Positions 43,796-48,860 of a stretch of 64,000 bases of DNA are shown in pieces; position 1 is the first letter of the stretch, and every line of letters begins with the position of its first letter. Under the pieces are notes generated by a model. The model had not been told where the DNA came from. It saw nothing but the letters and a program-made list of their open reading frames with translations, and searched no databases. This stretch comes from an uncultured Alphaproteobacteria bacterium (GTDB taxonomy: Bacteria > Pseudomonadota > Alphaproteobacteria > Rs-D84), in contig CALXXY010000004.1 in the NCBI GenBank assembly GCA_944392815.1, forward strand, positions 23,064 to 87,063. Direction: 5' to 3'. The position numbers and the translations under genes are program-made.

Positions 43796-44596
43796 TAGAG
43801 TGTGAGTGTAGATGTTGTCTGCGCGTGCGCGCGGGATACCACCCCGTCGCGCAAAGCGCGCCACCCCTCCGCAGAGGGGAACTTTGGTCTGCGACGGTAC
43901 GTAGCCAGTTCCCCTCCGTTGGGGGGCGCAGGGCGGGGTGGTTTACTCGTTGCTTGTTATTCGTGACTCGTTATTCGTATGTGTGTCGCTCGGGCGCGTT
44001 GCGCCCTGTGCGTATCCTCGTATTTGTTCAAACTGCGCTGTCGCTTGTTTTCACATACTCGGATTCCCTCGGCTGGTGCCTGTGGGTATCCTCGTAGTTG
44101 TTCAAACTGCGCTGTCGCTTGTTTTCACATACTCGGATTCATCGCGAGCAAAGTGTGGCGATCCAGTAAATAAAAAAGCACTGCGGGCGTACCGCCCGCA
44201 GACATATTGCCCTGGATTGCCACAGTCGTACGCCAACGTTTCCAACGTTAGCAATGACAGGGGGGGCGACGCCATTCCATTAAAATGGAATGTCGCTCGC
44301 AATTAAATTGCTGCGCGTATCCTCGTAGTTATTCGAACGGCGCTTGCGCTTGTTCTCATATACTCGGATTCCCTCGGCTGATGCCTGTGGGTATCCTCGT
44401 ATTTGTTCAAACTGCGCTGTCGCTTGTTTTCACATACTCGGATTCATCACTGGGTGACGCCATTCCATTAAAATGGAATGTCGCTCGCAATTAAATTGCT
44501 GCGCGTATCCTCGTAGTTGTTCAAACTTCGCGTTGCTCGTTTTCACATACTCGGATTCGTCACCGGGTGACGCCATTCCATTAAAATGGAATGTCG
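43796..44596. repeat. Composite intergenic repeat cluster (families A, B, C plus heptamers)
   Basis: C core 43838-43885 with inverted partner 43908-43942; five ~55-bp A units (44012, 44086, 44317, 44391, 44505); three 28-bp B palindromes (44268, 44456, 44569); TTA(C/T)TCG-type heptamers 43943-43978. Confidence 0.92.
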
Positions 44597-45048
44597 TCAC
44601 CGATGTCGGCGACGGATATTTCTTCGCGTTGGGGTTGGGACGGTTGAGATGCCGGTTGGCCATAGTCACCGCCAGATGCGGCGCCGTCCAAACTTTTGGC
44701 GCCGGCCAAAATCACCATTTGACCCGCGAATTGATTCAAAACAACTTCGGTTGTATAAACGTCCACACCCTGTTGATTTTGCCATTTGCGTGTACGCAGA
44801 GAGCCCTCGAGATACAGTTTTGTTCCCTTTTGCAGCATGCGTTCGGCAACTTCGACCAAATTCGGATTAAATATCACAACGCGGTGCCATTCGGTTTGTT
44901 CCTTTTGCTCGCCAGTTTGTCTGTCGCGCCAACGATCCGATGTTGCCAGTGAAAAACTGACCACCTTTTGTCCGCTTTGCATTGTTCTGACCTGGGGATC
45001 CTGGCCCACATTACCGACCAATATCACTTTGTTTATGCTGCCTGCCAT
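44581..45048 (-). CDS. ssb: Single-stranded DNA-binding protein
   Basis: SINKVILVGNVGQDP, TEWHRV, DDIPF C-terminus. Confidence 0.99.
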   Translation of the reverse strand: MAGSINKVILVGNVGQDPQVRTMQSGQKVVSFSLATSDRWRDRQTGEQKEQTEWHRVVIFNPNLVEVAERMLQKGTKLYLEGSLRTRKWQNQQGVDVYTTEVVLNQFAGQMVILAGAKSLDGAASGGDYGQPASQPSQPQREEISVADIGDDIPF

Positions 45049-45231: not shown

Positions 45232-46500
45232 ATGCATATCAATGAATTGAAGGCAAAATCGCCACAACAATTGTTGAAAATGGCCGAAGATATGGGGATT
45301 GAAAACCCGGCGCAATTGAATGTACAGCAATTGCGTTTTGCTGTTATGCGCGTATTCGCGGCCGATAATAAAATCACGCTGATTGGCGACGGGGTTTTGG
45401 AACGTATGCAGGACGGTTTCGGATTCCTGCGGGCACCGGAAAGCAATTATCTGGCCGGGCCGGACGATTTGTATGTGTCGCCTGCGTTGATTAAAAAATA
45501 TGGTCTGAAAACAGGCGATTATATCGAGGGACAAATCCAGGCGCCACAAAATGAATCTGAACGTTATTTCGCGTTGGAAACTATTGAACGCGTAAATGGG
45601 GGCGATCCTGACAAATTGCGTCATCGTGTGTCGTTTGACGATATGACACCGCTGTATCCAGATGAAATGCTGAAAATGGAGGTTGTTGACGATAAGGACA
45701 AAGGGCGCAGTTTGTCCGCGCGCGTGATTGATTTAATCGCGCCGACCGGTCGTGGTCAACGCAGTTTGATTGTTGCGCCACCGCGTACTGGTAAAACTGT
45801 GATGCTGCAAAATATTGCGCATTCAATCGCGACAAATTATCCAGATGTGAAATTAATCGTGTTGTTAATTGACGAACGACCCGAGGAAGTGACCGACATG
45901 CAGCGCAGCGTCAAGGGCGAGGTTATTTCGTCCACTTTTGACGAGCCCGCTGCCCGGCATATTCAGGTGGCCGAGATGGTCATTGAAAAAGCCAAACGTT
46001 TGGTCGAATCTGGCCAGGACGTTGTTATTCTGCTGGATTCTATTACCCGGTTGGGGCGCGCGTATAATACCGTTGTGCCGTCCAGTGGTAAAGTTTTGAC
46101 CGGTGGTGTCGATGCGTACGCGTTGCAACGTCCAAAGCGTTTCTTTGGCGCGGCACGTAATATCGAAGGCGGGGGATCGCTGACCATTATCGCGACCGCT
46201 TTGGTGGATACTGGTTCCAAAATGGACGAAGTTATTTTCGAAGAGTTCAAAGGTACCGGCAACAGCGAAATTATTTTGGACAGAAAGTTGTCTGATAAAC
46301 GTGTGTATCCCGCGATTGATATTACTAAATCCGGGACGCGCAAAGAAGATTTGTTGGTTGGCAAAGATACGTTGGCAAAAATGTATGTGTTGCGCCGCAT
46401 TATTAATCCAATGGGCACATTAGAGGCGATGGAATTCCTGTTGGATAAATTGCGTCTGACAAAAACAAATGCCGATTTCTTTGCGTCAATGAATCAGTAA
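45232..46500 (+). CDS. rho: Transcription termination factor Rho
   Basis: [29 protein letters not shown]. Confidence 0.99.
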
Positions 46501-46521: not shown

Positions 46522-46547
46522 AATCCCGCCCTGTGCGGGATTTTTTT
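46522..46547 (+). terminator. Intrinsic terminator after rho
   Basis: AATCCCGC-CCTGT-GCGGGATTTTTTT. Confidence 0.75.
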
Positions 46548-46560
46548 GTGGGGGGAATTT

Positions 46561-46791
46561 ATGAAAAAATATTTTGTTATTGCGGCAATTTGTGCCGGTG
46601 TATGTGCCGGGGCATACTGGGCGGGCGGGCGTGTGGCGACCGCGCAATGTGATGTGAAAATATCTGAAATGCGCATGGCACATCAATCAATGAATACAGA
46701 AATTTTGGGGGCTGTACATGAAAAAACTGTTAATACTGGGGTGCGCGATATTCGTCGCATCTTGCACGAAAAATACACCATTGCCGATTGA
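46561..46791 (+). CDS. Small membrane-anchored protein, i-spanin (Rz)-like
   Basis: N-terminal TM (FVIAAICAGVCAGAYWAG) plus short helical C-domain; GGGGGA RBS; overlapped in +1 frame by a lipoprotein gene. Confidence 0.6.
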   Translation: MKKYFVIAAICAGVCAGAYWAGGRVATAQCDVKISEMRMAHQSMNTEILGAVHEKTVNTGVRDIRRILHEKYTIAD

Positions 46792-46909
46792 TAATTGTGT
46801 GCCTTGTGTGCCGATTTATGGGCGGGAAAATGACTGGCGCGTTATCAGCGATGATTTGGCGCGAAATATTTACAGGCATAATTTACTGTGCGCGGCGGTG
46901 CGTGATTAG
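46718..46909 (+). CDS. Small lipoprotein, o-spanin (Rz1)-like
   Basis: Lipobox VAS-C; C..C.PIY....D...SD.LARNI..HN..C pattern recalled from Rz1-like proteins; 74-bp overlap with previous gene. Confidence 0.6.
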   Translation: MKKLLILGCAIFVASCTKNTPLPIDNCVPCVPIYGRENDWRVISDDLARNIYRHNLLCAAVRD

Positions 46910-47754
46910 TCGGGTAATGCGTCCAGTGCAATGCCAACCAATTTGTTGACCAGTTCTGCACTGGCACGGTCACCCGATGGCGCGTATTCCACAAATTCAA
47001 AACTGTGGGCGTCGGGCGCAAATGTGCGTACAAAATATTCGGCCGCGTTTGGTGAAATGCCACCCGTTTCAGGTACCAATACGTCGCGAAATGCGGCGGG
47101 ATCAATCGCGTCAAAATCAAATGACACCACGTATGGGCGGGTGCCGATGGATTGGCGGATTTCACGTGCCGCGCGGGCCCAATCTGTGGGTGATTGCAAA
47201 TCTGTTGGGGAACGCATATAGATATTTTGGCTGCGGGCGAATTCTATTTCCGCATTTTCAAATGAACGTGTGCCCAGATAAAATATATTTTCTGGACGTA
47301 ATGCAGGGCGGTGTGTTTGCAATGACAACCAACGCGCGTCACCGGCGCCCAATAATGCACGCACGTTTGTGCCGTGTGGTGCGCCAGATGCCTGGGCACG
47401 GGACGATTCTGGGGTGTGTATATCCAGGTGGGCGTCAATGTATATCAGGCATAAATCTTCGTCGGGCAAATTGTTGGCCAGCGCAGTAAAATGGCCAAAG
47501 TTGGTCGAATGGTCACCGCCAATCATAATGTGGGGTTCGTCCGGTGTGGCCGCCACAATTTTTTTCTGGATATTAAAACAGTCGCCGAATCTGTCGCGGG
47601 CGCATAATTGCGCGTCGTACGCGTCGGCAACAACCGTTGTCCAATCTGCGTTCGGGTACATTTGCTTTACCGCGGCGGGGGCCAAAGCAGGACCGCCGGT
47701 CACTATTTTTGCCGTGGCGCCACGGCCGTATTCAATTCCCAAGATTGTTTTCAT
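46906..47754 (-). CDS. Arginase/ureohydrolase family protein
   Basis: GGDHS, DAHLD, HGT, SFDFDAIDP, PETGG, FVEY. Confidence 0.9.
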   Translation of the reverse strand: MKTILGIEYGRGATAKIVTGGPALAPAAVKQMYPNADWTTVVADAYDAQLCARDRFGDCFNIQKKIVAATPDEPHIMIGGDHSTNFGHFTALANNLPDEDLCLIYIDAHLDIHTPESSRAQASGAPHGTNVRALLGAGDARWLSLQTHRPALRPENIFYLGTRSFENAEIEFARSQNIYMRSPTDLQSPTDWARAAREIRQSIGTRPYVVSFDFDAIDPAAFRDVLVPETGGISPNAAEYFVRTFAPDAHSFEFVEYAPSGDRASAELVNKLVGIALDALPD

Positions 47755-47755
47755 G

Positions 47756-48775
47756 TTATTTATATGCCTCTACTATACTTTCGGCGGCATTTTCCAATTG
47801 CAACAGTGATGTTTCGTACGCGGCACAATCGCGCGCGATTTCAGATCTGTATGCGTCACGCATATTTGTTTGCATGTATGCACAACCCTGCAGGTGTTGC
47901 ACACAATATTGGTGCCCCATGGCAAATGCTTGTTGGCCGCGGACTGTGCTGGCCGTGCTGGCCCAGTCGATGTCCAGGGCATCTTCCAGATTGTGCCATG
48001 AATTTTCGCCGGTGTATTTAACTATTGTATCCTCCCAATATTCGTGCATTTCCTCGTCCGTCCAGTAATTTGTACTTTGCAGCGTCAGGATTTCTTTGAT
48101 TAATTGGTCTATTTTCGGTTTGTGTTTTGCGTCGATTTGCGCCAACTGAGAACTGCAATAGCAACGATTGTATTCTGCGTCCTGGCGCAGGCAATAATTA
48201 TCCATGCATTCGGTGTAGTCCGCCATGCAACGGGACGATGATATGGCCTCGCCCGTGGTGGTGTATGTGGCCGTTTGGTCGTTGCGTGAAACCGTCGTGC
48301 CGCCGTTTGTGCGCGATGCGCGATTGGCCGATTGGACGGCTGTGCCGGTTGTGGTGCCGGAACGTGCAGTGACGCGGCGCGTGGTGGTTGGCGTCGCCGC
48401 GCGGGCAGTTGTGGATTTGTTTGTCGCGCTGCGCGCCGCCGATGTTGTGCCAGCACGGGCGGTGGTCGATGTGTTTGTGCGGGCCGCCACACGGCGTGTG
48501 GTGGTGGCGTTTGCGGTCGTGGCGCGCCGTGGAACCACGTTGCGGGTTGTGGTGCCGTTTGATTTGGTGCGCGTCAAAACATTAATTTGCGCGTTTGATT
48601 GCGACGGACTGACCCCCGGATTTAAATTGGTGCGCATGGTGTTGTTCATATATGGGTATAAATTGTTATATGTGTTCGCACTGACGTAATCAGACGCACG
48701 GGCCGCGGCGCGCGCGTTTCCCGATATTGATATCAGGCCAATTATAACCGCCGAAAATATGAACTGTTTTACCAT
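47756..48775 (-). CDS. Secreted T/R/A-rich, Cys-motif protein (paralog of 942-4151)
   Basis: Start reassigned to MVKQF; CMADYTECMDNYC...RCYCS motif. Confidence 0.85.
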   Translation of the reverse strand: MVKQFIFSAVIIGLISISGNARAAARASDYVSANTYNNLYPYMNNTMRTNLNPGVSPSQSNAQINVLTRTKSNGTTTRNVVPRRATTANATTTRRVAARTNTSTTARAGTTSAARSATNKSTTARAATPTTTRRVTARSGTTTGTAVQSANRASRTNGGTTVSRNDQTATYTTTGEAISSSRCMADYTECMDNYCLRQDAEYNRCYCSSQLAQIDAKHKPKIDQLIKEILTLQSTNYWTDEEMHEYWEDTIVKYTGENSWHNLEDALDIDWASTASTVRGQQAFAMGHQYCVQHLQGCAYMQTNMRDAYRSEIARDCAAYETSLLQLENAAESIVEAYK

Positions 48776-48832
48776 CAATAGTATTGTAAAAATTTTAGTG
48801 GATTCAGACAAGCACAAAATGTATATAAATAT

Positions 48833-48860
48833 TTGCATTTATATAAAATGCTGTTATAAT
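48833..48860 (+). promoter_or_regulatory. tRNA-Pro promoter
   Basis: TTGCAT-N16-TATAAT with extended -10 (TGTTATAAT). Confidence 0.8.

Follow-up and report, generated by a model that had tools for sequence, protein, structure and literature searches.

Two overlapping genes located behind rho in an uncultured gut alphaproteobacterium are supported, by their homology and architecture, as a genuine two-component spanin of phage origin, which has very probably been domesticated as a functional module of its host. Spanins are known for completing phage lysis; a few pathogens also have them within whole domesticated lysis cassettes. The most likely function of the present pair, proposed tentatively at a little below even odds, is to serve the release of T7-like particles whose genes lie elsewhere in the same genome. 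Taken as a whole, the best explanation, that of a domesticated phage spanin which would supply the outer-membrane step of particle release, is given a probability of about 0.5.

The host genome is a 927-kb metagenome-assembled genome (96.8% complete) from the family Rs-D84 (Candidatus Enterousia and its sister genera), the members of which have genomes of about 0.9 Mb. The lineage, placed in the order Rs-D84, has been described as gut bacteria with reduced genomes that probably depend on partners (PMC12306168). That a spanin pair alone is kept near-universally in a lineage that has lost most of its genome argues for a real cellular use of this membrane fusogen.

The overlapping genes and their surroundings

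In the window, i.e., the whole stretch of 64,000 nucleotides that was analysed, the i-spanin-like gene (ORF A) occupies positions 46561..46791 of the plus strand, starting with ATG and encoding 76 amino acids, and the o-spanin-like lipoprotein gene (ORF B) is found on the same strand at 46718..46909, likewise with an ATG start and with a product of 63 amino acids. The two share a dual-coding overlap of 74 nt (46718..46791, plus strand), ORF B being in the +1 frame relative to ORF A; frame 0 of the overlap encodes the C-terminus of the i-spanin and frame +1 the signal peptide and lipobox of the o-spanin. These ORF coordinates agree exactly with the original prediction, which had described a TM-anchored 76-aa gene overlapped by 74 bp in the +1 frame by the gene of a 63-aa Cys/Pro lipoprotein, with host-like codons and a position between rho and arginase. 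The position was likewise borne out: rho (45232..46500, recognised by its sequence motifs and its use as a query) lies upstream, and an arginase-family gene on the minus strand (46906..47754; PF00491, E 1.4e-34) converges on the pair from downstream, its stop codon overlapping that of the o-spanin gene. Composition is host-like as stated, with a GC content of 0.467 against 0.456 for the genome, and with codon-adaptation values of 0.82 and 0.73 that fall at or just above the genomic 5-95% range of 0.65-0.80.

No phage-like genes flank the pair, the flanks being rho and the arginase-family gene, and no holin or muralytic gene was found near it in the surrounding window. The lysis-cassette context of holin and endolysin is seen only around the prophage homologues described below and not at the rho locus, location in a cassette being a matter of context and not of protein family. 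Beyond the arginase-family gene, a conserved gene on the minus strand (window 47756-48838) encodes a 360-aa secreted protein with no Pfam hit, comprising a Thr/Ala/Arg-rich low-complexity stretch and a Cys-rich C-terminal domain. Several relatives carry a further gene of 308-364 aa, absent from the window, on the same strand between the o-spanin gene and the arginase-family gene (L006:1711-2676, L007:1712-2680, L009:1737-2663, L010:1737-2693, L019:3253-4200, and L025:3248-4342), the product of which bears the protein-kinase-like motifs A-L-K and R-I-D-[WF]-G. Between a 1810-aa ORF and ssb, a repeat of ~113 nt occurs as an array with dispersed copies (window 43800-44650; TRF, 44391-44596, 1.8 copies, 92% match), and its units produce look-alike spurious ORFs.

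A terminator-like hairpin with its T-run (46522..46549, the hairpin itself at 46522-46542, plus strand) stands directly 3' of rho. The T-run ends 12 nt upstream of the i-spanin ATG, and there is no room for a separate promoter between the rho terminator and that start codon. Sequence reading places a G-rich Shine-Dalgarno-like site for the i-spanin gene at 46550..46555 and a second such site, preceding the o-spanin ATG, at 46707-46711 (both on the plus strand). Because the T-run of the rho terminator reaches right up to the i-spanin ribosome-binding site, RNA polymerase can arrive at the pair only across the hairpin; the genes would be transcribed solely where this terminator is read through at a low level or is subject to regulated antitermination, an arrangement typical of phage late genes. 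Among the homologous loci, a T-run of at least five within 45 nt upstream of the i-spanin gene is present in 74 of 98, the median distance to the upstream co-directional ORF is 50 nt, and Shine-Dalgarno-like sites precede the i-spanin gene at 63/98 loci and the o-spanin gene at 77/100.

Spanin features and phage relatives

The i-spanin-like protein begins with M-K-K (K2, K3), followed by a hydrophobic stretch at residues ~5-22 predicted to act as the TM anchor and by a membrane-proximal Cys30 that is conserved in at least 90% of homologues. In the AF2 prediction, made with the family alignment, residues 2-75 form a single uninterrupted helix (pLDDT about 75), and the protein would accordingly present the N-terminal TM anchor and helical periplasmic domain of a two-component spanin, in which the ~53 periplasmic residues would by arithmetic reach roughly 8 nm if fully helical. 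The helical stalk is freely variable in the family alignment, and conservation lies in the last ~20 residues, with the C-terminal motif D-I-R-R-x-L-x-x-K-Y-T-I-A-D/E.

The o-spanin-like precursor comprises a signal peptide, the lipobox F-V-A-S-C with Cys16, four cysteines and four prolines in all, and a mature protein of 48 aa. Across 24 aligned homologues, the lipobox follows the pattern [VA]-[AT]-[SAG]-C with an invariant Cys16, and the residue at +2 varies among T, A, V and C but is not D in any of them. The lack of an Asp at +2 after the lipobox Cys, which is found in this protein as in the o-spanins of two-component systems generally, constitutes an outer-membrane sorting signal. The genome encodes Lgt, LspA, LolA, BamA, TolB, a TolQ-like gene of the MotA/ExbB family and six OmpA-like proteins, from which it follows that a diderm envelope and lipoprotein sorting are available. 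Conservation of the o-spanin is concentrated in its C-terminal 30 residues; Cys30, Cys58 and the core D-W-x-x-I-S-D-D-L-A-R-N-I-Y-R-H-N are invariant. In the AF2 model, an unstructured linker (19-36) joins the signal helix to two further helices (37-41 and 45-62); pLDDT is 84-88 over residues 31-60.

Since the C-termini of the two subunits bind each other in characterised spanins, the conserved C-termini of both proteins would fit a retained complex. Periplasmic cysteines that could form disulfide-linked dimers are present in both sequences (Cys30 of the i-spanin; Cys30 and Cys58 of the o-spanin), in a pattern resembling the near-universal periplasmic cysteines of two-component spanins, T4 PseT.2 especially (PMC6139136). 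Of the embedded, overlapped and adjacent arrangements in which o-spanin genes occur, the pair displays the overlapped one, a class defined by Kongari et al. in 2018 (PMC6139136).

Neither protein matched any family in Pfam or NCBIfam, no close relative of the pair was found in IMG/VR, and a PDB sequence search returned no relative. Homology to recognised spanin families came from the o-spanin, which matches phrog_1275, the 'Rz-like spanin', near full length at E 1.5e-6 (4.9e-7 on the genome), and the family of which aligns with three phage o-spanins at hhalign 97.3% (E 2.6e-11). Foldseek against BFVD matched only weakly (best E 0.012), named o-spanins ranking sixth and seventh. A tblastn search of 50,697 phage records likewise gave weak matches, nearly all on annotated o-spanins, whose genes overlap an upstream i-spanin gene of 89-106 aa in a pair that comes after holin and endolysin. 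A profile search of 1.84 billion representatives returned 19 matches, indicating that the subfamily is narrow. Three long matches from the profile search were rejected as repeat or mis-called proteins, and the 'fused' matches of 114-119 aa because their gene calls had been begun too far upstream and ran across a prophage pair of the overlapped kind.

The phrog_1275 pairs of Escherichia phage Fostie, Klebsiella phage KPP5665-2 and Burkholderia phage PE067 similarly consist of a short TM i-spanin overlapped by a lipoprotein gene. Their o-spanins (65-89 aa) have in common with the present one the core C..PIY..DWDV[IL]..R.I..HN...C and the periplasmic Cys, whereas their i-spanins measure 89-106 aa against 76 aa here, and the i-spanin family aligns with those of the Fostie/PE067 type collinearly but weakly (hhalign 23%). 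The phage pairs come after holin and endolysin; in contrast, the pair in the window stands alone between rho and the arginase-family gene and is vertically inherited.

The closest relatives of both genes occur in Enterousia prophage cassettes (L127, L126 and the metagenome contig L029), in which the o-spanin core recurs and the two genes again overlap in the +1 frame, by 74-80 nt. A holin (PF05105) or a small TM protein flanks these copies on one side and an endolysin, either VanY/M15 or phrog_873, on the other, with tail-fibre genes adjacent. In G073 (L127), a Phage_holin_4_1 protein (E 5e-14), a 79-aa i-spanin, an overlapped o-spanin and a VanY/M15 endolysin are encoded in succession after the tail-fibre genes; G288 (L126) has a small TM protein, a 76-aa i-spanin, an o-spanin and a VanY endolysin, and contig L029 a C-terminal-TM protein, an i-spanin, an o-spanin and a phrog_873 endolysin (E 2.6e-54). 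The window i-spanin matches that of the G288 prophage by BLASTP (E 2e-8) and the Enterousia cassette i-spanin by hhalign (95.4%), sharing with the cassette proteins the C-terminal motif (DIRRxLxxKYTIAD) and the membrane-proximal Cys. Given homologues of both genes in prophage lysis cassettes, the pair belongs to a spanin family that serves lysis in the phages of this lineage; the suggested Rz/Rz1-like identity was thereby upheld, the o-spanin having come through the HMM comparison with spanin databases that had been proposed as its check.

Conservation and selection in the family

The o-spanin profile was detected in 269 of the 328 genomes of the order, with 268/298 in the own family and 243/256 in the own genus against 0/29 in the five sister families, representatives of which showed no such pair behind rho. 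Both genes were present at 100 of 103 loci. Among these 100, the i-spanin measured 74-79 aa at 99, and the same 74-nt overlap, with both ORFs intact, was retained at 99 species loci, far beyond chance. The pair is also a very clean natural case of a dual-coding overlap, fixed at 74 nt in hundreds of species. Synteny across the lineage was also preserved, with rho upstream at 71/82 loci, the arginase-family gene downstream at 59/75 and the 360-aa secreted protein downstream at 71/75; at loci rearranged without rho, the pair is still placed 40-70 nt behind another same-strand gene. The pair is vertically inherited and near-universal in the family, with neighbours that are usually the same, as its assignment to the core genome had implied.

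NG86 estimates of dN/dS, made at a saturated dS of about 1.4, were 0.16 for the o-spanin outside the overlap, placing this protein under purifying selection, and about 0.5-0.6 for the i-spanin stalk; dS was about 0.45 in the overlap versus about 1.45 in the single-coding parts. Family-wide conservation, the exact overlap and the low dN/dS together argue for the domesticated module that had been predicted and not for a decaying relic. The pair would have become established downstream of rho in the common ancestor of the family, and selection would have maintained it since then with no linkage to a holin or endolysin. It is nonetheless dispensable and not essential, being missing from the near-complete genomes G017, G155 and G160, which have nothing after the rho terminator. 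As the o-spanin tree (67 columns) did not resolve, with prophage copies nesting among host copies, no claim is made on the direction of transfer between host and phage. A sister genus that lacks the spanins contains a 26-residue stretch matching the o-spanin core, with an in-frame TAA (G307:C13:4550-4627, E 0.014), which may be the remnant of a lost o-spanin copy.

Candidate partners and competing roles

The pair had been predicted to lack any holin, endolysin or prophage, and to work with lysis or GTA genes elsewhere. The first of these statements holds at the locus and fails genome-wide for endolysins, since the search of the host genome (G000) for orphan holin, endolysin and GTA genes found no holin, including no homologue of the prophage holin-like protein, and did find muralytic candidates and a T7-like particle cluster. 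Two membrane-anchored paralogues, P0146 (G000:C1:149699-150460) and P0147 (G000:C1:152095-153111), have a C-terminal domain matching phrog_873 (E about 1e-19 and about 1e-20, respectively), a domain of the phage internal-virion/endolysin type with the motif W-R-N-N-N-P-G-N, which occurs as the stand-alone endolysin domain in the L029 prophage. Homologues of P0147 were present in 51/51 sampled family genomes versus 3/19 elsewhere in the order. A further candidate, P0127 (G000:C2:115770-117077, minus strand), is a membrane protein of 436 aa in which a TPR motif and a borderline match to GH24 phage lysozyme were found; its gene adjoins that of a Ros/MucR-like regulator.

The particle cluster (G000:C1:98288-110145) encodes a T7-type portal (C1:98327-99520), tail tube proteins, a major head protein (phrog_3437, E 8e-72), a T7-type scaffold, a Lys/Ala-rich basic protein and a T7-type large terminase split into two genes (C1:103735-104322 and C1:99630-100319) around an opposite-strand block of three ORFs. 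Directly at its edge lies the gene of P0148 (166 aa), a SleB/Hydrolase_2-like cell-wall hydrolase as judged from its SleB/Hydrolase_2 motifs, its language-model neighbours (98/100 SleB/Hydrolase_2, score 0.96) and a phrog_938 match (E 1.7e-4). Every family genome sampled (26/26) has a conserved P0148. Its homologue shares a contig with the T7-type terminase gene, at a distance of up to about 7 kb, in at least two of the other genomes checked: G004, and G026, which belongs to a sister family. A GTA of the HK97 type was rejected, since no PF05065 capsid was found in the host genome.

By homology with phage spanins, the i-spanin would sit in the inner membrane, projecting a single helix of roughly 8 nm, and the o-spanin, lipidated at Cys16, would be delivered by the Lol pathway into the outer membrane, on its inner leaflet. 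The conserved C-terminus of the former may then bind the conserved helix pair of the latter, giving a complex that reaches across the periplasm by passing through the peptidoglycan. After local cutting of the wall, by the SleB-like P0148 and possibly also by the membrane-anchored muralytic proteins P0146 and P0147, the complex would collapse and the inner and outer membranes fuse. The pair would in this manner act last, opening the outer membrane in a lysis under host control by which the domesticated T7-like particles (G000:C1:98-110 kb) would be set free.

A co-loss test compared the spanin profile with the T7-type portal in 83 family genomes that were at least 96% complete. Genomes with the spanin had the portal in 73 cases and lacked it in 3, and those without the spanin had it in 4 and lacked it in 3, corresponding to an odds ratio of 18 (one-sided Fisher p 0.0068, with phylogeny and assembly gaps ignored). 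The three double absences fall in three different genera, and the signal favours a link between spanin and particle without being decisive, there being seven discordant genomes (4 spanin-less with portal and 3 portal-less with spanins). Counting against the link, the T7-like cluster is also present in sister families that do not possess this spanin pair, in which no replacement pair was found near the T7-like clusters or behind rho. The failure to find a holin, the short i-spanin stalk (~53 periplasmic residues) and the weak similarity to well-studied phage i-spanins (hhalign 23%) count further against the best explanation. The predicted partnership with lysis or GTA genes elsewhere thus gains a T7-like cluster with a SleB-like hydrolase on C1 and a co-loss signal, and its functional side continues to be inferred.

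Several other roles can be weighed against particle release. The pair might be a stand-alone membrane-fusion device under host regulation, switched by antitermination at the rho terminator and opening local fusion pores between inner and outer membranes without cell death, so as to release particles, DNA or vesicles or to act as a phage decoy. This is rather unlikely, but if true it would represent a new physiological use of spanins outside lysis cassettes. Also unlikely is a non-lytic or sub-population release of large proteins or vesicles in the manner of a T10SS, employing P0146, P0147 or P0127 and independent of the T7-like particles. The release of proteins by domesticated holin/endolysin/spanin cassettes is well established (PMC10847048, PMC13284979), muralytic proteins of the P0147 type are core to the family by the counts given above, and the genome encodes many very large proteins; however, the spanins of known T10SSs are clustered with holin, endolysin and cargo, whereas here nothing is linked and no holin was found in the genome, and the co-loss with the particle portal points elsewhere.

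Improbable, too, is an anti-phage use, by which the host copies would mix with the closely related spanins of infecting Enterousia phages and poison them, or hasten abortive lysis. Enterousia prophages do have the same spanin family with the same interface motifs, and the nesting of prophage among host copies, in a poorly resolved tree, makes cross-interaction conceivable. Yet no defence genes flank the pair, the strong purifying selection and invariant interface bear no arms-race signature, a block at the last step of lysis does not rescue the infected cell, and the o-spanin tree is too short to be informative. Much the same doubt attaches to a purely structural tether, i.e., a periplasmic spacer or a connection of the inner to the outer membrane that takes no part in fusion. 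Spanin complexes of the Rz/Rz1 kind physically link both membranes through the cell wall, and a component made constitutively would be well served by low-level expression through read-through from rho; against this, a tether replacing Tol-Pal is unlikely because TolB and the TolQ-like MotA/ExbB-family gene are present together with the six OmpA-like proteins, and the three near-complete genomes devoid of the pair show that it can be dispensed with. The least credible reading is that of a neutral prophage relic, which the original prediction had retained as its alternative, or of a TM/lipoprotein pair unrelated to spanins. The silence of Pfam and NCBIfam and the weak similarity of the i-spanin to characterised phage i-spanins would agree with it, but both genes have homologues in real lysis cassettes, and the family-wide conservation, exact overlap and o-spanin dN/dS of 0.16 speak against it.

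Domesticated lysis cassettes that include spanins are already known (PMC10847048, PMC13284979). In the YenLC cassette of Yersinia entomophaga and the T10SS of Salmonella, phage lysis proteins including spanins are similarly kept for controlled release, with holin, endolysin and spanins forming one cassette beside the cargo, whereas here the spanin pair is found alone in a 0.93-Mb genome and across a whole family, and the window around it contains no such cluster of holin, endolysin/peptidase and spanins with cargo. The literature search found no paper on a spanin-only core module or 'orphan spanin', nor a GTA paper describing a dedicated unlinked spanin pair. Gene transfer agents are released by lysis (PMC13236601), and those of the RcGTA type and of Caulobacter resemble the case proposed here, in which a domesticated particle cluster would likewise rely on lysis genes elsewhere in the chromosome, but the cluster here is T7-like, not HK97-type. 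The pair and the conserved T7-like cluster together outline a dispersed phage-derived release system in abundant uncultured gut bacteria, in which the pair offers a testable handle on whether the T7-like particles are released. Unlike the rho-linked pair, the Enterousia prophage copies occur in only a few genomes; two of these prophages, L127 (G073:C5) and L126 (G288:C1), carry baseplate and tail-fibre genes and are integrated beside a HicB-like gene and a lysS/RelA-SpoT-like pair.
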